NCBI GenBank assembly: GCA_963798465.1
Contig: CAWCTC010000001.1
Coordinates: 528,465 to 592,464 of the forward strand
DNA: 64,000 nucleotides
Reading direction: 5' to 3'
Origin: an uncultured bacterium
Lineage (GTDB): Bacteria > Patescibacteriota > Minisyncoccia > Phycocordibacterales > GWA1-40-21
Shown here: one piece after another, positions 6,584 to 64,000 of the stretch
Layout: each line of letters begins with the position of its first letter
How positions within the stretch are numbered: position 1 is the stretch's first letter
Program-made: the position numbers and the translations under genes
Notes under the pieces: generated by a model
Database searches by the model: none
What the model was told of the DNA's origin: nothing
What the model saw: the letters and a program-made list of their open reading frames with translations, nothing else

Positions 6584-7714
6584 TTAATTTTCATGCTGCA
6601 GGCCGATTTTTATTATTTCATGAGCTATCAGATCAGCTGCATCGCCTTTTATAAAACTCTTTGCACCTTCGCTCATTTTTTTCTGCAGATTGTTATCATC
6701 CATAATTCTAGTAATTTCAGAAAGCAATATATTCGGCGAAAGGTTAATTTCTTCTATGACGATTGCTCCGCCTGATCTCGCATAGTTGTAAGCATTCTGC
6801 CTTTGATGATCTCCATTCGTATCTGCAATCGGAATAATTATGCTAGGAATTCCCCAGTATGCAATTTCAAAAATTGCCGAACCGGCTCTTGAAACAATCA
6901 AGCTTGAAGCGCCTGCAGACATACTCATATTCAAATCGTCAAGATAATCAAACGGTCTGTATCTGTTTTTCAGTTTATTATCTGTCAAAACTACGCCGGA
7001 AGTTCCCAAAACTTCTTCAATATTTGCCTTTCCAACTTGATGAATAACATAATATTTTTCGACAAGAGCCGGTAATATACTCATAATCTGATCATTTATA
7101 ATTTTTGCGCCAAGCGATCCGCCCAAAATAAGTATCGTTGGAATATCTTCCATCAAATTTAAAAATTTTCTTGCATCATCTCTAGCAGGAAGCATTTGGA
7201 TGCTTTTTCTTACAGGATTTCCGGTAACCGCAACTTTTTTGGAATCAAAATATTTTGCGGCTTCGGGATAAGAAACGGCAACCCTTTGTGCAAATTTTGC
7301 CGCCCAGGCATTTGTCCTTCCTGGCGCGCTGTCTGATTCATGTACTACCACAGGTATCCTCAATATTTTTGCGGCAAACAGAACAGGAAAACTTGAATAA
7401 GCTCCTTTGCTAAAAATAACGTCGGGATAAAGATTGAAAACTTTTATTGTCGCGTCTATCACTCCGAAAAATGTTTTGAAAAAATCAAAAAAATTAAGTA
7501 TGGAAAAATATCTTCTGGATTTGCCAGCAGAAATTTTTATATATTCGATATTATTTTCTAAAAGCATATCGGCATCATGCGGAGAATCCGACATATAAAA
7601 AAGCTGTATCGGAAGAAGTTTTTCATCCTTTACGATTTTATTTATCGATTCGGCAACCGCTATGAGAGGATAAAAATGTCCGCCTGTGCCTCCTCCTGTT
7701 AAAAGAATTTTCAT
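6584..7714 (-). CDS. murG: Lipid II-forming UDP-GlcNAc transferase MurG
   Basis: N-terminus MKILLTGGGTGGHFYPLIAV, 376 aa, and it follows ftsW in a dcw-type cluster. Confidence 0.93.
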   Translation of the reverse strand: MKILLTGGGTGGHFYPLIAVAESINKIVKDEKLLPIQLFYMSDSPHDADMLLENNIEYIKISAGKSRRYFSILNFFDFFKTFFGVIDATIKVFNLYPDVIFSKGAYSSFPVLFAAKILRIPVVVHESDSAPGRTNAWAAKFAQRVAVSYPEAAKYFDSKKVAVTGNPVRKSIQMLPARDDARKFLNLMEDIPTILILGGSLGAKIINDQIMSILPALVEKYYVIHQVGKANIEEVLGTSGVVLTDNKLKNRYRPFDYLDDLNMSMSAGASSLIVSRAGSAIFEIAYWGIPSIIIPIADTNGDHQRQNAYNYARSGGAIVIEEINLSPNILLSEITRIMDDNNLQKKMSEGAKSFIKGDAADLIAHEIIKIGLQHEN

Positions 7715-7717
7715 TTA

Positions 7718-7852
7718 CCCGAGAAAATTTTTGCCGATAAAAATCACTGTTTCGACAAAACAGCGATATATGTTATTCTTTTTGATTAATTTTGTCATCA
7801 TTGCGGGTTGTAAATAATAATTTTTAGAAACGTCGACAAAAACTTTAACAGG
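7718..7852 (+). repeat. MITE-like element, family C, copy 1 (imperfect terminal inverted repeats)
   Basis: Termini are CCCGAGAAAATTTTTGCCGA and TCGACAAAAACTTTAACAGG; the reverse complement of the right end aligns with the left end. It is nearly identical to copy 2 at 8982-9117. It fills the ftsW-murG spacer and stops 3 nt from the murG start codon. Confidence 0.85.
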
Positions 7853-7868
7853 TGAATTATTTTTTAAA

Positions 7869-8978
7869 TCAAGCTTTTTTATTAAATCTGGACACGCTTA
7901 AAATTATTCCTATTTGAACCAAAAGTATGAACATTGCGGTTCCTCCTTGGCTGAAAAAAGCCAAAGGCAATCCTGAAAAAGGAACGATGCCCAATACTGA
8001 AGCTATATTTATAAAAGACTGCAGTATCGTAAGTATAACAATTCCGAACACCAAAAGTCCACCGAAAGGATCAACAGATTTTATAGCTATTCTAAAACCG
8101 AAAAATACGAAAAATAAAAATAAGATTATTATAGAAACACATCCGACAAAGCCCAGCTCCTCGCCAAGCACGGCAAAAATCGTGTCGCTTATCGACTCCG
8201 GAAGAAATTGATATTTTTGAATGCTCTGTCCCAAACCTTTTCCAAAAATCTCTCCGGAACCGACGGCGATCAAGGATTGCTGAACTTGATATCCGGCATT
8301 TTGAGAATCGGCTGACGGATGTATAAAAGTTTGTATTCTCGACATGACATACGGTCTGGTAAAAGCCAAAATCGCTATGCAGATTATTCCAAGTGCGCCC
8401 AAAATAAAAACATATTTGATTTTTCCACCGGCAATTATGAACATTGAGATTAGTGCAATACAAATAATTACAAAGGAATCCGTATCAGGCTGAGCCAAAA
8501 GAAGAGCACCGACAATACCCATGATGACAAGCAGAGGCACAAAACCGAATTTGAAAGTTGAAACTTTTTCTTTTATCGATGAAAGCCATGCAGCCCAATA
8601 GACAATTACGCCTATATTCAATATTTCAACAGGTTGGAAAGAAAAACCGAAGATGGAAATCCATCTTTTTGCGAAAGTATTGAGATTTGTCCCGATATGA
8701 GGAACAAAAACCAAAGCAGTAAAAATCAATGAACCTATTAAGATAGGAAAAGAATATTTTTTAAGAATTTTATAATCTATTTTTATAAAAATAAAACATG
8801 CCAGTCCGCCGAGGATTATCCCGAAAAATATCTGCTTGAAAACCACGGATGCAAATTGAGTGCTGTTTTTTGCAAGTATTCCCATGGAAGCCGAAACAAA
8901 AATAGTAAAGCCGATAACCATGAGAATGATTACTATTCCAAGAAAAACTTTATCGATTCCTTTGCTGTTTGATGACAT
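7869..8978 (-). CDS. ftsW: SEDS-family peptidoglycan polymerase FtsW/RodA
   Basis: 369 aa, about 10 TM helices, located between mraY and murG. Confidence 0.9.
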   Translation of the reverse strand: MSSNSKGIDKVFLGIVIILMVIGFTIFVSASMGILAKNSTQFASVVFKQIFFGIILGGLACFIFIKIDYKILKKYSFPILIGSLIFTALVFVPHIGTNLNTFAKRWISIFGFSFQPVEILNIGVIVYWAAWLSSIKEKVSTFKFGFVPLLVIMGIVGALLLAQPDTDSFVIICIALISMFIIAGGKIKYVFILGALGIICIAILAFTRPYVMSRIQTFIHPSADSQNAGYQVQQSLIAVGSGEIFGKGLGQSIQKYQFLPESISDTIFAVLGEELGFVGCVSIIILFLFFVFFGFRIAIKSVDPFGGLLVFGIVILTILQSFINIASVLGIVPFSGLPLAFFSQGGTAMFILLVQIGIILSVSRFNKKA

Positions 8979-8981
8979 TTA

Positions 8982-9117
8982 CCCGAGAAAATTTTTGCCG
9001 ATAAAAATTACTGTTTCGGCAAAACAGCAATATACGTTATTCTTTTTGATTAATTTTGTCATCATTGCGGATTTTTAAATAATAATTTTTAGAAACGTCG
9101 ACAAAAACTTTAGCGGG
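8982..9117 (+). repeat. MITE-like element, family C, copy 2
   Basis: Termini are CCCGAGAAAATTTTTGCCGA and CGACAAAAACTTTAGCGGG. It fills the mraY-ftsW spacer and begins 3 nt from the ftsW start codon (..GACATTTA|CCCGAG). Confidence 0.85.
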
Positions 9118-53599: not shown

Positions 53600-54833
53600 T
53601 TATTCATACCTAAGTGCTTCCATCGGACTTTTCTTTGCAGCTTGATTTGCAGGATAAATACCAAAAACCAAACCAACAAGGCTTGCAACCAAAATACCGA
53701 GTAGTGCCGCTTCGTATGGAAAAACAAATTGCCAATTCAAAGCGAGGACTTTTGTCAGAATAATTGAAATAAGATAAGAGAGAGATCCTCCTAAAATAAC
53801 TCCGATGATTCCCCCGGTTCCCGTAAGCATTACAGCTTCAAGTAAAAACTGAACCAAAATATCATGATTGGTCGCCCCGATAGCTTTTCTCAAACCGATT
53901 TCCTTTGTTCTCTCCGTAACAGAAACAAGCATAATATTCATAATTCCGATTCCACCGACAATAAGTGAAATCGCTGCAACTGCCGCAAGAAAAGCTGTAA
54001 GCGCAGTTGTTATTGTACCTAGAGTTGCAGCAACATCAGCAGTAGTCTCAACTGAAAAATCGTCATTTGCCGGATCAGTAATATTATGAGAATTTCTCAG
54101 TGTAATTTTTATGTCATCAACAGTTGATGCGAGATTTGCCTGTGAATCCGCTTCAACAACAATTCTATTGAAATATTTTGTCCCTGTAATATATTGCTGT
54201 GCTGTTGTGTACGGCATAAATACAGCATCATCAAACTCAGAAGAAGAACCTTTTTCCGGCAAAACTCCAATTACTTTAAATGTATTATTTTTAATTCTTA
54301 TTTTTTGACCAATAGCATTATTTCCATCAAATAAGATTCTTCTGCACATTATATCCGATAACAACAACTAAAGACTGGCTTATCACATCATCATTGGTAA
54401 AAAAATAGCCTTGATTTGGATTTATATCAAAAATTTCAGGAATCTGTTCACCGGAACCGAAAACTGCAACTTGGTAAACTAAATTTCCATTAACAGCTGC
54501 ACCCGCGCCAATTACCATCGGCATAATATATTTTGCGTCTGGTACATTTGCCTTCAATTCTAGAGCAGTCAAATCTTTTTCTTTTAGAGAATCATTTAAT
54601 GTCTGTGCTGCTGCAGAAGGACTGAATGAAATTTTTCCTGGGATAACGGTTATGGTGGTAGCACCAAGTCCATTAACTTGACTCAAAATTAGATTTTGTG
54701 CGCCTTGTCCAAGCGACATGACTAATATAATAGAAGTTATTCCAATAACAATTCCAATGATAGTCAAAGCCGAACGTGATTTGTGCGTCATAAGTCCAGT
54801 CACTGCTGTTTGTATGCTGTATTTTAATTTCAT
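53600..54833 (-). pseudogene. MacB/FtsX-type ABC permease, frame broken by one extra base
   Basis: ORFs 54327..54833 (N-terminal TM plus periplasmic MacB_PCD-like domain) and 53600..54367 (FtsX C-terminal 3-TM domain) join as ..VVVIGYNVQKNL|FDGNNAIGQKIRIK.. if one A is removed (CTT[A]TTTGAT). The span is 1234 nt. Confidence 0.85.
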
Positions 54834-54941: not shown

Positions 54942-55662
54942 TTATTTTACAAATTTATCAGCACTAGTTTTTCTTTCCTTAACTTTCTCATCACTTTCTA
55001 TTTGTCCATCAAGCAACCTAATTATTCTTTGGGCATATTCGGCGGTATATGTCTCATGAGTTACAAGAATAATTGTATGTCCCATTTCAGTATTTAGTTT
55101 TTGAATTATTTCGATAACCGCTTGTCCAGATTTTGAATCAAGATTTCCTGTCGGCTCATCCGCAAAAATAACTTCAGGATCATTTACAAGAGCTCGCGCA
55201 ATGGCGACTCTTTGCTTTTCTCCTCCGGAAAGCTGAACCGCCTGATGATGCATGCGACTGGCAAGCCCGACGGAAACAACCGCATCCTCTGCTTTTTTAT
55301 TCCATTCGGATTCTGGAACGCTTGAATAAATAAGCGGAAGTTTTACATTTTCAAGAACCGTTTCGTGTGGCAAAAGATTGAATGATTGAAAAATAAAACC
55401 AATTTTTTCATTTCGCAGTTTTGCAATTTCGATAGGATTAAAAGAACCAATATCTTTTCCCAAAAAATAATAAGTTCCTTCTGTGTGATTATCCAGAAGT
55501 CCAAGAATTTGGAGTAAAGTTGATTTTCCAGAACCGGAAGGACCCATGATTGCCAAAAATTCGCCTTTTTTTATTTCAAGAGATACGCCGCGTAATGCTT
55601 CAGTTTTTGTTCCTTCATTTTCATAAACTTTCCAAAGATTTTTTGTTTCTATCGAGATTCAC
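54942..55662 (-). pseudogene. MacB/LolD-type ABC ATPase, frame broken by one extra base at codon 4
   Basis: GTG 55662 gives MNL, then after removing one G (CTC[G]ATA) IETKNLWKVYENEGTKTEALRGVSLEIKKGEFLAIMGPSGSGKST.., [14 protein letters not shown] and [11 protein letters not shown]. The span is 721 nt. Confidence 0.85.
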
Positions 55663-57244: not shown

Positions 57245-57295
57245 AACTGACAGATATTATATCAGACTTTAATTATTTTAAAATGATAATTTAAC

Positions 57296-57453
57296 TTGTC
57301 GGAGCGCCGGGATTTGAAACTTACAGTTTCAGTACCCTGATTGGCTCGCTTGTTCGTGATTACACTCCAAGCTCGGCTCAATCAGGCTTCAAATCCCTTT
57401 TGAAGCAATCCCATTGCTTCAAACACTCACAACAAAATTACTTCGTAATTTTG
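57296..57453 (-). repeat. tRNA-3'-end-associated structured element (family D) downstream of tRNA-Pro, ending in a 23-nt copy of the tRNA-Pro 3' end
   Basis: TTGTCGGAGCGCCGGGATTTGAA occurs at 57296-57318 and at 57451-57473. Internal hairpins are CAAAATTAC-GAA-GTAATTTTG, TTTGAAGCAAT-GGG-ATTGCTTCAAA and CCTGATTG..CAATCAGG. The last 71 nt form a tRNA-length 'ghost' starting TGGAGTGTA (the real tRNA starts CGGAGCGTA). Confidence 0.7.
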
Positions 57454-57525
57454 TCGGAGCGCCGGGATTTGAACCCGGAGTCACATGAACCCGAATCATG
57501 CATGTTACCGTTACACTACGCTCCG
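57454..57525 (-). tRNA. tRNA-Pro (anticodon CGG)
   Basis: Hand-folded cloverleaf: CGGAGCG/CGCTCCG acceptor, GTGT/ACAT D stem, CATGA-TTCGGGT-TCATG anticodon arm, CCGGG-TTCAAAT-CCCGG T arm. CCA is not encoded. Confidence 0.9.
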
Positions 57526-57675
57526 ATATTTTTCTTGTGGTCACAAATAAAATTACTGACGTAATTTTTTCGCGACCTCGGCTCACCATTTTTGCCTTTG
57601 CTTCGCTAAACAAAAATATGGCTGCGCCTTCCACAAGATCATAAAATCTAAAGCAGTTTAGATTTTATGATCTTG
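57526..57675 (-). repeat. Family D element downstream of tRNA-Ala(CGC)
   Basis: A 50-nt hairpin (57630-57679) starts inside the tRNA 3' end (TCCACAAGATCATAAAATCTAAA-loop-TTTAGATTTTATGATCTTGTGGA). Conserved stems follow, then GGTCGCG..GTCA-loop hairpin..TGTGACC, and it ends in CCACAAG, a 7-nt copy of the tRNA 3' end. Confidence 0.7.
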
Positions 57676-57746
57676 TGGACCTAGGCAGAATCGGACTGCC
57701 GTCTCGTCAATGCGAATGACGCGTTCTACCACTGTACTATAGGCCC
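57676..57746 (-). tRNA. tRNA-Ala (anticodon CGC)
   Basis: GGGCCTA/TAGGTCC acceptor with G3:U70, anticodon arm CGTCA-TTCGCAT-TGACG, T arm GGCAG-TCCGATT-CTGCC; 71 nt. Confidence 0.88.
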
Positions 57747-57898
57747 AATTTTATTGTGGTCCCGAATAAATTTCCTGACGGAAATTTTTCTTGACCATGA
57801 CTTGCGGTTTTTGCCTTTCGCTTTGCTCAAACAAAAACATCGCTCCGTCTTCCACATAGTAGATAAAATCTGCAGTAGTGCAGATTTTATCTACTATG
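57747..57898 (-). repeat. Family D element downstream of tRNA-Ala(GGC)
   Basis: A 52-nt perfect hairpin (57851-57902) includes the tRNA 3' end. It is collinear with the 57526-57675 element, and the substitutions are compensatory in two stems (GCG..CGC vs CCA..TGG; TTTCC-GTCA-GGAAA vs ATTAC-GTCA-GTAAT). Confidence 0.7.
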
Positions 57899-57971
57899 TG
57901 GACCACACCGGGATCGAACCGGTCGCCTCTTCCATGCCATGGAAACGCTCTACCAAATGAGCTAGCGGCCC
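57899..57971 (-). tRNA. tRNA-Ala (anticodon GGC)
   Basis: GGGCCGC/GTGGTCC acceptor with G3:U70, anticodon arm TTTCC-ATGGCAT-GGAAG, T arm ACCGG-TTCGATC-CCGGT; 73 nt. Confidence 0.9.
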
Positions 57972-58097
57972 TTTGCGCCAAGTGAGTATATTATAAAAAA
58001 TCATAAAAATCAAAAATAGAATAATAAAAAAAATTATGTTATAAAGTAATCGTGCACGGGCGATTAGCTCAGTTGGTTAGAGCATACGATTCATTCA

Positions 58098-58214
58098 CCC
58101 GAGAAAATTTTTGGACATTTAGCTCAGTTGGTTAGAGCATGCGATTCACATTCGCAAGGTCACAGGTTCGAATCCTGTAATGTCCACACATCATCGTCCA
58201 AAAACTTTAACGGG
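58098..58214 (+). repeat. MITE-like element, family C, copy 4: the same inverted termini, but the interior is tRNA-Val
   Basis: CCCGAGAAAATTTTTGGAC ... GTCCAAAAACTTTAACGGG. The termini can pair over 19 positions with 3 mismatches. Confidence 0.75.
58113..58186 (+). tRNA. tRNA-Val (anticodon CAC), nested inside the interrupted tRNA
   Basis: GGACATT/AATGTCC acceptor, GCTC/GAGC D stem, TGCGA-TTCACAT-TCGCA anticodon arm, ACAGG-TTCGAAT-CCTGT T arm; 74 nt. Confidence 0.9.
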
Positions 58215-58254
58215 CAAGTTCGTAAGGTCACAAGTTCGATTCTTGTATCGCCCA

Positions 58255-58486
58255 CAGACAAAAAACAAGATGAATATGAATACTTGCAATATTCAGCTGT
58301 TTTTGGCTGGGTGATACAAGAATCGAAAGATCGGAAGTAATTTTTTCAGCAGAAAAAATTACTGAGTCGTGGTCGCGAAAAATTTCGAGCAACCTAATTT
58401 TCTTGAGCGAAGCGATTAGAAAATGGGAGTACTCTTGTGGTAGACGGCGAGAAAATTATTTGTGACCGATTCTTGTATCGCCCACA
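58255..58486 (+). repeat. Family D element downstream of the interrupted tRNA, with inverted and direct copies of its 3' end
   Basis: The direct repeat CGATTCTTGTATCGCCCACA occurs at 58237-58256 and 58467-58486. An inverted copy, TGGGTGATACAAGAATCGAA, lies at 58308-58327. GGTCGCG (58368) and TGTGACC (58461) are shared with the 57526 element. The last 75 nt form a tRNA-length 'ghost' starting AAGCGATTAG (the real tRNA starts GGGCGATTAG). Confidence 0.7.
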
Positions 58487-58570
58487 AAAATATAAAAAGT
58501 CCAGTGATTCAAATATGGGCATTAAAAAGGCTTGGAAAAATATATTCTTTATGCTAATCTTTTATCCACT

Positions 58571-58643
58571 GGGCCTGTAGCTCATCTGGTAGAGCACCTC
58601 ATTTGCAATGAGGGGGTAAGCGGTTCGAGTCCGCTCAGGTCCA
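58571..58643 (+). tRNA. tRNA-Ala (anticodon UGC)
   Basis: GGGCCTG/CAGGTCC acceptor with G3:U70, anticodon arm CCTCA-TTTGCAA-TGAGG, T arm AGCGG-TTCGAGT-CCGCT; 73 nt. Confidence 0.92.
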
Positions 58644-58664
58644 CACAATGATACATCCACATTT

Positions 58665-59630
58665 TTATTGCTCCAAGGCAAGAGTGATCACGTGATCTAA
58701 AAAGTTTGACAGAGAACATCCGGCTGCTTCTAAAGATTTTGGAAGCAGTGATTCTTTCGTAAGCCCCGGCAAAGTATTGACTTCAAGAATATAAACTCCC
58801 CTTTTCGGACTGACAATAAAATCCGATCTTGAATAATGACGAAGACCGAGAATTCTGTGCACCTCGACTGCCATATCTTGAATTGTCTTTTTTTCTTTTT
58901 CGGAAAAATTGCCTGGACATACTTCGCTCGACTTGCCAGAATATTTTGCATCATAACCGAAAAATTCGAAATCTTTCGGCTTGATTATTTCAACTGGAAA
59001 AAGAGGGTAAATCATTTGACCTCTGAAATTTTCAACAACTCCGCAAGTCGCTTCTTTCCCTTTTATGAATTCTTCCACGATTATCACATCAGAATATTTC
59101 AGGGCTTTTTCAATCGCTGGCATTATATCTTTCAGATTTTTAACCAAAGAAACGCCGATGGATGAACCGCTTCCTCCTGGCTTTACGATTGCAGGCATCG
59201 GAAATGTTTTGAAAATAGTTTTATCGATATCTTTGAGATTTTCTCCTTTTTTAATAACTTTATAAACCGGAGTTTTCAAGTCATCTTTTGCAAAAATATT
59301 TTTTGCCATGACTTTATTCATGCCGAGCGCCGACGCCAAAGCTTTTGATCCGGTATATTTCACGCCGAATTGATCCATAAGCTGTTGCACTTTTCCGTCT
59401 TCGCCATACTCGCCGTGCATTGCATTAAAAACGACATCAATATTTTTGAATAATTTTTCAGGAGATATTTTGACGCCATCCAAAAACCAAGATTTGTTTT
59501 TGTCCACAAAAACATCAAGCGGAATATATTTTTCCGGCAGATTTTCCAAGACATTTTTTCCCGACTTCATGGAGACTTCGCTTTCCGCTCCAGGACCGCC
59601 TCTTAAGACTGCAACTTTTATTCTTTGCAT
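58665..59630 (-). CDS. ddl: D-alanine--D-alanine ligase
   Basis: 321 aa, ATP-grasp fold (MQRIKVAVLRGGPGAESEVS.., ..EVNTLPGLT..). Confidence 0.93.
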   Translation of the reverse strand: MQRIKVAVLRGGPGAESEVSMKSGKNVLENLPEKYIPLDVFVDKNKSWFLDGVKISPEKLFKNIDVVFNAMHGEYGEDGKVQQLMDQFGVKYTGSKALASALGMNKVMAKNIFAKDDLKTPVYKVIKKGENLKDIDKTIFKTFPMPAIVKPGGSGSSIGVSLVKNLKDIMPAIEKALKYSDVIIVEEFIKGKEATCGVVENFRGQMIYPLFPVEIIKPKDFEFFGYDAKYSGKSSEVCPGNFSEKEKKTIQDMAVEVHRILGLRHYSRSDFIVSPKRGVYILEVNTLPGLTKESLLPKSLEAAGCSLSNFLDHVITLALEQ

Positions 59631-59661
59631 ACTAAGGAGAATTATATCACTTCAATAGAAA

Positions 59662-60882
59662 TTACAAAACAAAATTTTTGTTTCTTCTTTCTCTGTGATA
59701 CTTGATAGCAAACCTGTGAGCTTCGCTATTCGCCAACAAGATTTCGCTTTCATATTTATGAATCAAATCTTCTCTGCCAGTAATCATTTTTGGCCTGTGT
59801 CTTTCGTCTTTTGTAACAGCTACAACAATAATATCTGGAACGCCGTATTGTTTAAGTGTTTTTTCAGCTATATTTTTTTGAGCAGTCGAACCGTCTACTA
59901 CTATTATGTCAGGAAATTTCCATTCTTCATGATTCAATCTTCTTCGGAGCATTTCGCCGAGTCCAGCAACGTCATTTTGCACGCTTTCATTTATTTTAAA
60001 TTTTCTGTATTCAGCTTTGTTCACCATTCCATTTTCAACAACAGTCATTACGCCGACAGTGTTTGTTCCGCTAATATGTGCAACATCATAAGCTTCAATC
60101 CTGAAAGCCTTTCCGGTTTTTTCCTCGATATTTTCTTCTTTAATAAGTGCGACATCTTGAATATGATTTAAAGCAAAAATAGTTTTCTTTATTTTGTCTG
60201 CCTTTTCAAATTCTTGATAATCAGCGTACGTTTCCATTTCTTTCTCGAGTTTTTCCATCAAATCAGTTTTTTTGCCTTCAAAAAATAATATTATATTTCT
60301 GATTACTTTTGCATAATCTTTTTTTGCTTCAACACCCGTAGTTTCCGGCGCCAAGCCGATTTCTTTGTAAAATTTATAGCCAGTTTTTTCATTTGAATAA
60401 TTATCTAGAAATGGAAAAATCTTGCGAACGATTTTCAAAGCTTCTTTAAGCTGACTTCCATTTGTAAAAGGTCCAAATTTTTCTTTGATTGAATATTTTT
60501 CTTTGCCAATTTGATCAAGAACTCTTCCACGTTCTATCAAAACTTTTGGAAAATCTTCTTTCGTAATAATCACATAGTTGTAGCTTCTATCATCTTTTTC
60601 TTTCGTATTATATTTAGGCTGATGTTTTTTAATCAAATTTGATTCAAGTATCAAAGCCTCAAGAACTGAATCTGTTTTTATAAAATCAATATTGTCTGCC
60701 TGAAAAACCATATCAACAATAAGCGGACCGCGAGTCGCAATTAAATCATTTGAAAAATAACTTCTGACTCTATCTTTGAGCGAAGTCGCTTTTCCGATAT
60801 ATAAAATATCCTTATTTTTTTTAAATAAGTAAACGCCAGGTTCGGTTGGAAGATTATTTTTTTTGAGTTGTTGACTATCCAT
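59662..60882 (-). CDS. uvrC: Excinuclease subunit UvrC, short form (ATG 60882; the ORF track begins at 60918)
   Basis: GIY-YIG N-terminus (EPGVYLFKKNKDILYIGKATSLKDRVRSYF), a UVR domain (YQEFEKADKIKKTIFALNHI), and an RNase H-like endonuclease domain. No C-terminal (HhH)2 is visible. Confidence 0.88.
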   Translation of the reverse strand: MDSQQLKKNNLPTEPGVYLFKKNKDILYIGKATSLKDRVRSYFSNDLIATRGPLIVDMVFQADNIDFIKTDSVLEALILESNLIKKHQPKYNTKEKDDRSYNYVIITKEDFPKVLIERGRVLDQIGKEKYSIKEKFGPFTNGSQLKEALKIVRKIFPFLDNYSNEKTGYKFYKEIGLAPETTGVEAKKDYAKVIRNIILFFEGKKTDLMEKLEKEMETYADYQEFEKADKIKKTIFALNHIQDVALIKEENIEEKTGKAFRIEAYDVAHISGTNTVGVMTVVENGMVNKAEYRKFKINESVQNDVAGLGEMLRRRLNHEEWKFPDIIVVDGSTAQKNIAEKTLKQYGVPDIIVVAVTKDERHRPKMITGREDLIHKYESEILLANSEAHRFAIKYHRERRNKNFVL

Positions 60883-60947
60883 ATTCAGTGTTATACCATG
60901 ACAAACGGACGAACTCAAATAAAAAAAATAATAAGGAGGTGTTAAAA

Positions 60948-61250
60948 ATGAATAAATGTAAATGTGGCGGAGAAATAAACAAAGAAGTATCCTTTTCGGG
61001 ACAAATTTTTAACGATGCAGAAACATTCTCAAAACGCAAAGAAGCTTATGAGTGTGCAAAGTGTGGCAAATTGCACTGGGATGATGGAAGACCGATTATT
61101 ATAAATGATCCGGTCTTTAAGGACCATGTAAAAGCATATTTATTTTCAATAGGCTGCGTGGACAAAACAAATCCGTGCGGTAATAATATTCTTGTCGTTT
61201 CAGTTAAAAAATTTCTTGGATTATTTCCTTATTACAAGAGAATAATCTAG
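60948..61250 (+). CDS. Small zinc-ribbon protein (100 aa from ATG 60948)
   Basis: RBS AAGGAGGTGTTAAAA-ATG, with CKCGG..(35 aa)..CAKCGK. Confidence 0.5.
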   Translation: MNKCKCGGEINKEVSFSGQIFNDAETFSKRKEAYECAKCGKLHWDDGRPIIINDPVFKDHVKAYLFSIGCVDKTNPCGNNILVVSVKKFLGLFPYYKRII

Positions 61251-61450: not shown

Positions 61451-61477
61451 AAAAACCCGAGCCATACTCGGGTTTTT
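61451..61477. terminator. Bidirectional rho-independent terminator
   Basis: AAAAACCCGAG-CCATA-CTCGGGTTTTT, overlapping the uvrA stop codon. Confidence 0.85.
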
Positions 61478-64000
61478 ATTTGCTCTTTTTCAAAACCCTC
61501 TTCAAATATTTTCCAGTGTAACTTTTTTCATTCATCGCGACATCTTCCGGAGTTCCTTTTGCAATTATTTCCCCGCCTTTGTCTCCGCCTTCAGGACCGA
61601 TATCGATAATATAATCTGAACTTTTTATCAAATCCATATTATGCTCAATGACAACGACAGTATTTCCTGCATCAACAAGCTTCTGCAAAATTTCTATAAG
61701 TTTTTTCACATCTTCATAGTGAAGTCCGATTGTCGGCTCATCCAAGAAATAAATTGTTTTGTGAAGTCCTGGCCTGTAAAGTTCCGAAGCGATTTTTACT
61801 CTTTGAGCTTCTCCGCCAGAAAGTGTTGTTGCAGATTGCCCAAGCTTCAGATAATCAAGTCCGACTTCGTTAAGACATTTTATCCTGTCGTAAACTGCCG
61901 GCAAATCCACAAAGAAATTCATAGCTTCCTCGACTGTCATATCCAGTATTTCATGAATATTTTTTCCTTTATATTTCACTTCCAAAGTTTCTTTCGTAAA
62001 TCTTTTTCCGTGGCAGACATCGCAAGGCACATAAACAGTCGGCAAGAAATGCATCTCGCACTTCAATCGTTCCGTTTCCTTCGCAGTTTTCGCATCTTCC
62101 GCCTTTTACATTGAAAGAAAATCTGTTTGCTCCCCAGCCTCTTTCTTTTGCCATCGTCGTCATTGAAAACATATCGCGTATGAATGTCCAAGCTCCGGTA
62201 TAAGTCGCCGGATTTGAGCGCGGAGTTCTTCCTATCGGCGACTGGTCAATCATGATTGTCCTCGCCAACATATTCCGAACCGGAAAAACTTTCGCAATTA
62301 TAGTGTTTGCATTCGGCGGAATTTTCTTTCAAGTCTTGCCTGCAGATTTTTATACAAAATTTCATAAACAAAAGAAGATTTTCCGGAACCGGAAACTCCG
62401 GTGATCGTCACAAATTTGCCAAGCGGAACTTCCACATTCATATTTTTAATATTGAAAATTTTTCCGCCTCGTATTTTCAGTTTTCCTTTATCTTGATCTC
62501 GTCTCTTTTTCGGCAAATCAATTTTCTTGTCTCCGCGCAAATAATCCAGAGTCAGAGAACCGGATTCATTTTTCTTTGCAGTCAAAAGCTCGTCCAGATA
62601 TCCTGAGACAACAACATTTCCTCCATGAACTCCGGCGCCCGGACCGATATCTACAATATAGTCCGAAGCGAACATCGTATCTTCATCGTGTTCAACAACA
62701 AGAATAGTATTTCCCAAATCTCGCAGATTCATAAAGTGTTTTTATGAGCTTGTCATTGTCTCTTTGATGCAGACCAATTGTCGGCTCATCAAGCACATAA
62801 AGTGCGCCGACAAGTCCAGATCCGAGCTGTGAAGCCAGACGAATTCTTTGCGCTTCTCCGCCAGAAAGAGTATTTGCTCTTCTATCAAGCGAAAGATATT
62901 CGATACCGACATTTGTCATGAATTGCAAGCCGGGAATCAATTTCTTTCAAAATTACTCTTGAAATTTCCTGTTCGCTTTCAGTAAATTTCATTTCTTCAA
63001 AAAATTTTTTGGAATCGGTGATAGATTTTGCGGTATATTCAACAATATTTATTCCTCCGATAAGCACATGAAGCGCTTCGTCGCGAGTCTTGCGCCGTGG
63101 CAGGTTTCGCATGGTTCATCCGTCAAAAAATCTTTCGTTCCGAGTCCATGGCAAGCTCGCAAGCTCCGTAAGGCGAATTGAAAGAAAAAAGCCGCGGCTC
63201 GATTTCAGGATAAGAATATCCGTCGTAAGGGCACATGAATTTCACGGAAATCATTTTTGTTTCCTCCGGAGTTTCAACTTTCAAAAGTCCTTTTGATTCC
63301 TCAATGGCTTTTTCAACCGCATCAGAAAGTGAACGTACACTATATAGCTTTCGTGTTTATCATTCCTTTGCTTGTCATTCCCGTGCAGACGCAATCCAGG
63401 TTCTTTTATCCGGTGCTTCGGTGGACGACTCTTTCGTCTTTTGAATTCGCTTATATAAAATTCATCGACAAGCACATCAATATCATGCTTTTTATTTTTT
63501 GAGAGAATTATTTGGTTCCTGAGTTTTTTCAGCTCTCCGTCGACTTTCACCTCCTCATATCCTTTTTCAAGTAAATCATAAAGAAGCTGATAATATTCTC
63601 CTTTTCTTCCGACAACAACCGGAGAAAATATTTTTATCTTGTCCGCATTCACTTCCACGCCCAGAATTTCTTTCGGATTTTTCGCCGGTTTCAAATGCGT
63701 GACAGTATGAATAATCGTTTCCAAAATTTCTTCTTTTGAAAGTTTTTTGATTTCTCTTCCGCAGACAAGACAATGCGGTTTGCCAATTCTTGCATAAAGA
63801 ATTCTCAAATAATCATAAATTTCCGTGATGGTCGCCACGGTTGAACGCGGATTGTTTGAACGGGATTTTTGGTCAATCGCGATAGCTGGAGAAAGTCCGA
63901 CAATCTCATCCACATCCGGCTTCTGCATTTGGTGAAAAAATTGTCTTGCATATGAAGAAAGCGATTCCACATATCTTCTCTGACCTTCGGCAAAAATCGT
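61476..64000 (-). pseudogene. uvrA: Excinuclease subunit UvrA, at least 6 frame changes plus a repeat-module insertion; the N-terminus lies beyond the right edge
   Basis: UvrA blocks are spread over ORFs 63281..63970, 62885..63112, 62692..62940, 62298..62732, 61969..62271 and 61476..62066, plus pieces I translated ([57 protein letters not shown]; [24 protein letters not shown]). The ABC signatures [12 protein letters not shown] and [12 protein letters not shown] are present. Confidence 0.85.
63374..63399 (+). repeat. Degenerate B-type hairpin module inside the uvrA reading frame
   Basis: GTCATTCCCGTGCAGACGCAATCCAG; compare GTCATTCCCGCGGATGCGGGAATCCAG at 22894. Confidence 0.7.

Follow-up and report, generated by a model that had tools for sequence, protein, structure and literature searches.

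Group I introns have a conserved core (P3-P8) and are typically longer than 200 nt. Archaeal intron-containing, split and permuted tRNA genes, which are interrupted in or near the anticodon loop and have paired flanks, need a bulge-helix-bulge motif and EndA and yield a functional joined tRNA; bacteria, to our knowledge, have no splicing endonuclease. Integrative elements and prophages at tRNA genes encode an integrase, duplicate only part of the tRNA in which they land and reconstitute a hybrid gene at one of the junctions, so that the sequence brought along preserves tRNA function. Bacterial MITEs such as Correia/NEMIS of Neisseria, RUP of Streptococcus and ERIC are short, non-coding elements with terminal inverted repeats and a long hairpin, which occur in multiple intergenic copies, are present or absent at orthologous sites and are mobilised in trans; we know of no bacterial MITE with a tRNA gene as its interior or a cognate anticodon loop as its site. 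Elements derived from IS200/IS605 (PATE) are marked by lack of target duplication, a conserved tetranucleotide beside one end, subterminal hairpins and a strand or orientation bias. In Patescibacteria, group I introns occupy position 35/36 of tRNA-Asn and tRNA-Asp (Nakagawa et al. 2026, PMC13011429), where they fit group I covariance models and self-splice precisely, with a 5' exon that ends in U and an intron 3' end that is G (PMC13011429).

The locus described here lies in the window, by which we mean the whole analysed stretch of 64,000 nt from an uncultured bacterium of the same phylum. It belongs to a Paceibacterota (candidate phyla radiation) genome, and those homologues of its Ddl protein that have a name are from Paceibacterota or Minisyncoccia. 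A tRNA-Val(CAC) gene is split there in its anticodon loop by 125 nt that contain a second, complete tRNA-Val(CAC). This arrangement probably arose by a recent insertion of a MITE, a non-autonomous transposon, that carries tRNA-Val(CAC) and belongs to a repeat family that we call family C; it would have entered the resident tRNA-Val(CAC) gene after A35 of the anticodon loop. The literature searched holds no description of a nested tRNA-in-tRNA, of a tRNA-carrying bacterial transposon or of MITEs in Patescibacteria.

A complete tRNA-Val(CAC) lies between the two parts of another tRNA gene

The tRNA cluster spans positions 57453-58644 of the window according to ARAGORN. Within it, 58058-58093 (GGGCGATTAGCTCAGTTGGTTAGAGCATACGATTCA) and 58219-58254 (TTCGTAAGGTCACAAGTTCGATTCTTGTATCGCCCA) are two parts of one class I tRNA gene. 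Their acceptor stem (GGGCGAT/ATCGCCC; GGGCGAU...AUCGCCCA at the RNA level) and anticodon stem (TACGA/TCGTA) pair perfectly, and the D and T arms form as well. The parts are separated by the 125 nt of 58094-58218, and the locus is made up as follows.

58058-58093, plus strand: 5' part of the resident (outer) tRNA-Val(CAC), nt 1-36 of 74, up to anticodon base A35; equal to the intact allele of L003 and L114-L122
58094-58112, plus strand: left end of the insert, TTCA followed by CCCGAGAAAATTTTT; left end TTYAYCCGAGAAAATTTTTG as in the copies at 7718, 8982 and 37874
58113-58186, plus strand: cargo (inner) tRNA-Val(CAC), complete, 74 nt; found by ARAGORN and by Rfam RF00005
58187-58214, plus strand: cargo trailer CACATCATC and right end of the insert GTCCAAAAACTTTAACGGG; the right core CAAAAACTTTAACGG is common to 7837, 9102 and 37987 and pairs with the left end
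58215-58218, plus strand: junction bases CAAG, defined by comparison with the intact allele TTCACAT
58219-58254, plus strand: 3' part of the resident tRNA-Val(CAC), nt 39-74, from loop base T38 to discriminator A73; equal to the intact allele in ten relatives

The inner gene was called as tRNA-Val(cac) by ARAGORN at 58113-58187, and the Rfam tRNA model matched 58113-58186 with 75.1 bits (E = 1e-14), the top score among the five tRNAs in the window. It is 74 nt long, has the discriminator A73 and no encoded CCA. The last G of the TTTTTG motif at the left end of the insert serves at the same time as its G1 (58113). Inner and resident tRNA share 63 of 74 bases, a divergence of about 15%; most of the differences are compensatory and affect both partners of a pair in the T, anticodon or acceptor stem. 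Over the D arm and the anticodon stem, 29 of 30 positions match between the inner 58119-58148 and the outer 58064-58093. On either side of the cargo, CCCGAGAAAATTTTTGGAC (58098-58116) and GTCCAAAAACTTTAACGGG (58196-58214) form a 19-nt inverted repeat with 84% complementarity. These observations agree with the original prediction, which had described two halves of one tRNA with a complete tRNA-Val(CAC) between them, an identity of 29/30 between the inner and the outer tRNA, and mutual pairing of the flanks over 19 positions.

The outer gene was detected by ARAGORN only when overlaps and introns were allowed, as a gene at 58058-58255 with a 123-nt 'intron'. The intron-model check proposed in the original prediction thus recovered the gene; its value is limited, as the same mode also calls false tRNAs within ftsW, and for this reason we regard the call on its own as weak evidence. 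What decides that the outer gene is a tRNA gene is its intact counterpart in ten relatives, to which each half is 100% identical. Standard tRNA finders report the inner gene only and miss the disrupted one, which is a warning for annotation.

Related strains carry an uninterrupted tRNA-Val(CAC) gene at the orthologous position

Orthologous loci were fetched via the neighbouring proteins Ddl, which is 98% identical in the relatives, and an HlyD-like adaptor. The set of intact alleles (L003 and L114-L122) derives from several metagenomes and includes the MAGs GCA_003142075.1 and GCA_003159435.1. All ten loci that include the resident tRNA gene carry an uninterrupted copy of it at the orthologous position, the allele for which the original prediction had suggested searching related clusters. 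This intact gene, GGGCGATTAGCTCAGTTGGTTAGAGCATACGATTCACATTCGTAAGGTCACAAGTTCGATTCTTGTATCGCCCA, is a 74-nt tRNA-Val(CAC) with the loop TTCACAT. The two halves in the window are identical to it at 36 of 36 and 36 of 36 positions (72 retained bases), and the 125 nt stand in place of 'CA' (C36 and A37). The inner tRNA sequence is absent from all related loci compared.

Because the intact allele of the ten relatives reads CAC, the disrupted gene is a tRNA-Val(CAC). This corrects the original prediction, in which the outer gene was taken for a tRNA(CAU) on account of a loop that begins TTCAT. These letters are literally present, with the fifth one, T, being the first base of the insert, and a tRNA(CAU) as target is ruled out by the anticodon of the intact allele. 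The further proposal that a mobile element with a tRNA cargo had inactivated a tRNA holds with respect to the mobile ends and to the intact gene in ten strains, and fails only in the identity of the target, which is Val(CAC) and not CAU. The nested state is derived and young, as neither half has decayed and none of the ten relatives has the insertion.

The insert has the ends of a mobile repeat family

A 19-mer from the end of the insert, allowing at most 3 mismatches, occurs at four sites in the window (7718, 8982, 58098 and, inverted, 58196) against 0.04 expected. A 15-nt left core and a 15-nt right core are each found in the copies at 7718, 8982, 37874 and 58099, in one shared orientation, so that the flanks of the inner tRNA are, as originally predicted, the termini of the family present at 7718, 8982 and 37874. 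Family C has four copies in the 64 kb window and a fifth just outside it, in L107. The copies are non-coding and 117-137 nt long; those other than the tRNA copy within the window are the following.

7718-7852, plus strand: family C copy located between ftsW and murG, whose interior is not a tRNA; recognised by the repeat ends and by its presence at the same site in L108-L112
8982-9117, plus strand: family C copy located between mraY and ftsW, with 93% identity to that at 7718; empty site in L108-L113
37873-38002, plus strand: family C copy with a third distinct interior; terminal pair T...A replacing C...G

All five copies have the left end TTYAYCCGAGAAAATTTTTG (CCGAAAAAATTTTGG in the L107 copy) and the right end CAAAAACTTTAACGG, and the family can be summarised by the end pair CCGAGAAAATTTTTG ... 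CAAAAACTTTAACGG. For every copy the same terminal helix is predicted, with 4-5 bp, an internal loop and then about 13 bp. The helix segment next to the interior varies from copy to copy with complementarity kept (GCCGA/TCGAC, GTTGA/TCAAC, GCTAAT/ATTAGC, GGAC/GTCC). Pairing of the ends is better on the minus strand, where an A.C mismatch becomes G.U. The copies without a tRNA showed no tRNA-like sequence and no other Rfam family at E <= 5.

Empty sites were found among the relatives. In L108-L112, whose FtsW is 96% identical to that of the window, and in L113, the site of the 8982 copy reads ATATAAATGTC, and the stop of mraY overlaps the start of ftsW; in the window, the copy sits exactly at this site, as ATATAAA[CCCGC...CTCGGGTAAA]TGTC on the gene strand. 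The 7718 copy is shared with L108-L112 at the same site and is missing in L113, a 79% relative. Its orthologue in L108 has an interior that is 64% identical, as against 92% for the adjacent ftsW, which suggests that interiors turn over or are exchanged as the ends are kept. On the clean empty site at 8982, the absence of the 7718 copy in L113 and the differing interiors, family C is a mobile family that behaves as a MITE. It has most of the defining features of one: short, non-coding units with terminal inverted repeats, multiple dispersed copies, and presence or absence with precise boundaries, as at 8982 (empty in L108-L113) and at the tRNA site (empty in ten strains).

The 8982 copy has TTTA on both sides, and the flanks of the other copies are TTTA/TGAA, TTTA/CTAA, TATA/TAAA and TTCA/CAAG. 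The empty site at 8982 fits either a 4-bp duplication of TTTA or an element that starts with TTYA and makes no duplication. At the junction of the tRNA copy there is no target duplication. TTYA is present at the left end in 4 of the 5 copies, the L107 copy having TATA. Models with target duplications of TA, 3 bp or 5 bp were rejected, as was IS608-type targeting of TTAC, a tetranucleotide that does not occur in the empty site. As to PATE, the TTYA at the left end and the single orientation of all four copies in the window could fit such an element; against it, the ends of family C pair with each other and do not make a hairpin each, and neither TnpA nor TnpB was observed. A Pfam search of ten ORFs of the window returned housekeeping genes only and no transposase, and no pair of left and right end frames an ORF in any locus compared.

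On the gene strand, the terminal A of family C is the A of the ATG start codon of both murG (7712-7717) and ftsW (8976-8981), in the form CTCGGGTAAA|TG. As this terminal A supplies the A of the ATG, the insertions at murG and ftsW keep the upstream stop and the downstream start. The family C interior also contains a sigma-70-like TTGTCG-17-TATTTA that points toward the downstream gene.

A nested tRNA-Lys gene occurs in a distant organism

Metagenomes were scanned with a pattern of two elements, the 15-nt left motif and, 40-70 nt further on, a T-loop-like 8-mer; nesting is not required by this pattern. The sole metagenome match was L101, a contig of 1154 bp, and it is nested: a complete tRNA-Lys(ttt) at 943-1013 lies within the anticodon loop of a tRNA-Lys(ttt) at 856-1059. 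The inner tRNA is preceded by GCCGAGAAAATTTTTGCC and followed by CAAAAATTTTTAAC, the latter resembling the right end of family C. Removal of 131 nt leaves a perfect tRNA-Lys(UUU) with the loop CTTTTAA; the boundary is ambiguous over TTT, so that the insert may be placed anywhere between 32/33 and 35/36. The organism is distant from that of the window, as the DnaJ fragment on the contig and the DnaJ of the window share only 33% identity.

The same pattern gave four chance matches in the genome collection, from unrelated phyla and none with a tRNA at that place, which shows what chance yields and that the L101 match is of another kind. Viral contigs had no match to the left motif with T-loop, and the 15-nt left motif alone gave 95 chance matches there, none with the right end. 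The T-loop with the right motif found only ordinary phage tRNAs in viral contigs, and exact halves of the inner tRNA of the window had no match in them. Together, L101 and the window point to a small class of insertions that would compensate for the damage they cause, each bringing as cargo an isoacceptor of the disrupted gene.

Assembly of the nested region

The nested structure is seen in a single assembly. The same-run Logan contigs, reached via the HlyD-like and Ddl proteins of the window, break on either side of the tRNA cluster, and a search through spurious ORFs that span the nest revealed no independent contig of the nested region on record. The nest would be an artefact if two tRNA-Val variants from co-occurring strains had been joined into a chimera. 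This is very unlikely in our judgement: a misjoin would not frame a complete tRNA with both MITE ends in the correct orientation, L101 has the same architecture in another study and another organism, and outside uvrA the window agrees with the Logan contigs at 99.9% or more. What speaks for a chimera, besides the breaks of the short-read contigs around the tRNA cluster, is that several genes nearby are frameshifted and that the assembly disagrees with the same-run Logan contigs across uvrA and at an indel, a G at 55653 that Logan contig L106 does not have.

The disagreement between the assembly and these contigs nearby is also relevant to the junction bases CAAG. The CA may be the original C36-A37 of the resident gene, and the AG at 58217-58218 has no equivalent in the intact allele. 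Given that disagreement, the AG could be an assembly error. If so, the event would have been a clean insertion of 121 nt between A35 and C36, in parallel to L101.

Three broken genes lie within 10 kb of the tRNA cluster. The gene uvrA (61476-63970) is spread over at least 5 ORF fragments and is about 8% diverged, with many indels, from L107, where it is intact with 913 aa; the adjoining 58588-61250 shows only two differences from L107. Either this uvrA is a pseudogene or a foreign allele, or the stretch was poorly assembled. A MacB-type permease (53600-54833) is split into ORFs of 255 aa and 168 aa, its intact form in relatives having 410 aa, and an ABC ATPase (54942-55653) lacks its N-terminus, the extra G lying at 55653.

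The native anticodon loop is not regained by removal of the insert

We considered whether the insert is removed at the RNA level, as an intron or from a composite precursor, with both tRNAs originating from one transcript. The helix formed by the flanks prolongs the anticodon stem, the position of the insert coincides with that of the 35/36 introns in Patescibacteria (PMC13011429), both outer halves are undecayed, and deletion of 131 nt from L101 restores a perfect tRNA-Lys(UUU) with its loop. In the window, no deletion gives the native TTCACAT: the products are TTCA+T, TTCACAAGT or, with the intron called by ARAGORN, TTCAAGT, which would put a Leu anticodon into a Val body. The undecayed halves are equally explained by a very recent insertion.

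Moreover, the group I intron family RF00028 had no match at the gathering threshold and none at E <= 10 over 57250-58700, and 125 nt are too short for a group I core. On the insert, no other Rfam family competed at E <= 10. The fold of the junction has no bulge-helix-bulge: in its minimum-free-energy structure an unbroken helix comes after a single 3-nt bulge, which is confined to the 5' side. If RNase P and RNase Z released the inner tRNA, the halves would keep tails of 19 nt and 32 nt. Family C also lies between protein-coding genes, opposite to the direction of transcription. We therefore hold removal of the insert from the transcript to be very unlikely. The composite precursor of the original prediction, with halves held together by the flank helix, likewise finds no support, as neither the native loop nor a group I intron or bulge-helix-bulge was found.

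Cargo and target are isoacceptors

In the window, then, the resident gene is in two parts from which its native 7-nt loop cannot be regenerated, and the ends of the insert are those of a mobile family. If a family C element carrying tRNA-Val(CAC) was inserted, the resident outer gene would be dead and its promoter would still transcribe the whole unit. The inner tRNA would be freed from the precursor by RNase P and RNase Z and would constitute the present tRNA-Val(CAC) supply of the cell. As it has the same anticodon, the function of the outer gene would not be needed.

The cargo is of the same isoacceptor type as the gene that it disrupts, and this match, which the original prediction had not noticed, is the most interesting feature of the locus. 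Both of the known tRNA-carrying copies, in the window and in L101, are situated in the 7-nt loop of their own isoacceptor (2/2). Random transposition does not explain two matches out of two. Retention bias alone was rejected as the reason for the match, because with undecayed halves and an insertion that is absent in ten relatives the allele is too young. With both random insertion and survivorship failing in this way, we think that the coupling between cargo and target is real. It may stem from a targeting that is linked to the cargo or to the structure of the loop, or from spread of the nested allele by homologous recombination via the tRNA halves. Site-specific integration or a single-crossover recombination between inner and outer tRNA was discarded as a mechanism, as it would produce two tandem hybrid genes and not a nest.

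Spread by recombination leads to a further explanation, in which the nested allele was imported whole from another member of the Paceibacterota through homologous recombination via the highly conserved tRNA halves, transposition having happened once and elsewhere. Such a spread would resemble that of an intron that has no endonuclease. The divergence of about 15% from the resident gene makes the inner tRNA look foreign, and the extra AG of the junction could come from the donor. Likewise, the occurrence of the terminal motif in the very distant organism of L101 indicates that horizontal movement takes place, and family C interiors are exchanged or turned over at an orthologous site. The arms of homology are just 36 nt each, though, the scans of metagenomes, genomes and viral contigs turned up no donor of this nested Val allele, and an import would only move back the origin of the cargo-target match and leave it unexplained. 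We consider such an import improbable.

Insertion of the tRNA-carrying element into the resident gene itself, if confirmed, means that a miniature transposon can bring a whole tRNA gene into the matching resident gene and exchange it in one step for a foreign tRNA. The nested arrangement implies such a one-step replacement of a tRNA gene. This would be a new route of horizontal tRNA gene replacement, in bacteria with a genome of about 700 kb and one gene per tRNA, and a new way for a selfish element to become indispensable. Two of two tRNA-carrying copies in their own isoacceptor also turn the choice of target into a testable question. More tentatively, we see it as possible, if rather doubtful, that tRNA-cargo elements form a distinct selfish class that homes into the anticodon loop of the cognate isoacceptor, destroys this gene in favour of its own copy and addicts its host through tRNA replacement. 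The coupling would then be mechanistic and no accident, with the cargo sequence or the structure of the anticodon loop, for instance, guiding the choice of target, and streamlined genomes would gain a route for horizontal exchange of tRNA genes.

Surroundings of the tRNA cluster

A 20-nt sequence that closes the outer tRNA-Val (CGATTCTTGTATCGCCCACA, 58237-58256) recurs 230 nt downstream (58467-58486), and an inverted copy is located at 58308-58327. The 230-nt module between the CGATTCTTGTATCGCCCACA repeats is missing in L116, in which the 3' end of the tRNA borders on a large serine recombinase of 516 aa and an ORF of 96 aa. Relatives have about 12-15 kb extra between ddl and the tRNA cluster, encoding an ABC2 transporter, a PDDEXK nuclease, a ResIII helicase and a recombinase, all of which is absent from the window. 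Given the 20-nt repeats, the abutting recombinase in L116 and the extra genes in relatives, the 3' end of the resident tRNA-Val resembles an att site at which an integrative element is inserted.

Two perfect palindromes with 4-nt loops, at 57851-57902 (arms of 24 nt) and 57630-57679 (arms of 23 nt), are positioned directly 3' of tRNA-Ala(ggc) and tRNA-Ala(cgc) and take in the terminal TCCA of each tRNA. The hairpin after tRNA-Ala(ggc) has a different sequence in L003, which suggests that these hairpins are exchangeable too. Three tRNA genes of the cluster are followed by a spacer module of about 110 nt (57530-57635, 57749-57856 and, inverted, 58330-58465) with 77-86% identity, for which no Rfam family match was obtained. 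In L123-L125, which have the HlyD variant P0362, homology to the window ends at 57822, and tRNA-Ala(ggc) and tRNA-Val are not beside tRNA-Ala(cgc). The cluster has thus been rearranged between close strains.

Comparison with known systems

The group I introns of Patescibacteria (PMC13011429) resemble the insert in phylum and in their place in the anticodon loop, the insert following A35, and both hide the host tRNA from standard finders. Unlike these introns, the insert has only 125 nt, of which 74 nt are tRNA, does not match group I models and does not leave the native loop upon removal. Archaeal intron-containing, split or permuted tRNA genes have in common with this locus the interruption in or near the anticodon loop and the paired flanks; they depend on a bulge-helix-bulge and EndA to give a joined tRNA, whereas the present locus is from a bacterium and contains no such motif. 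Integrative elements and prophages likewise choose tRNA genes as landing sites and carry sequence that preserves tRNA function. They differ from the insert, which has neither integrase nor ORF, did not duplicate the halves, left its target in two presumably dead pieces and supplies an entire separate tRNA. For each of these three classes a defining feature was looked for and was absent, so that the insert is neither a group I intron nor an archaeal-type intron, nor does it belong to the integrase-type elements.

The insert works like the bacterial MITEs, including Correia/NEMIS, RUP and ERIC, whose small size, non-coding nature, terminal inverted repeats and long hairpin recur in family C, together with multiple intergenic copies, presence or absence at orthologous sites and, presumably, mobilisation in trans. 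The literature searched contains no MITE that carries a whole tRNA gene and is nested in the gene of the cognate tRNA. What sets this copy apart from other bacterial MITEs is that its interior is a complete, functional-looking tRNA and that its site is the anticodon loop of the cognate isoacceptor.
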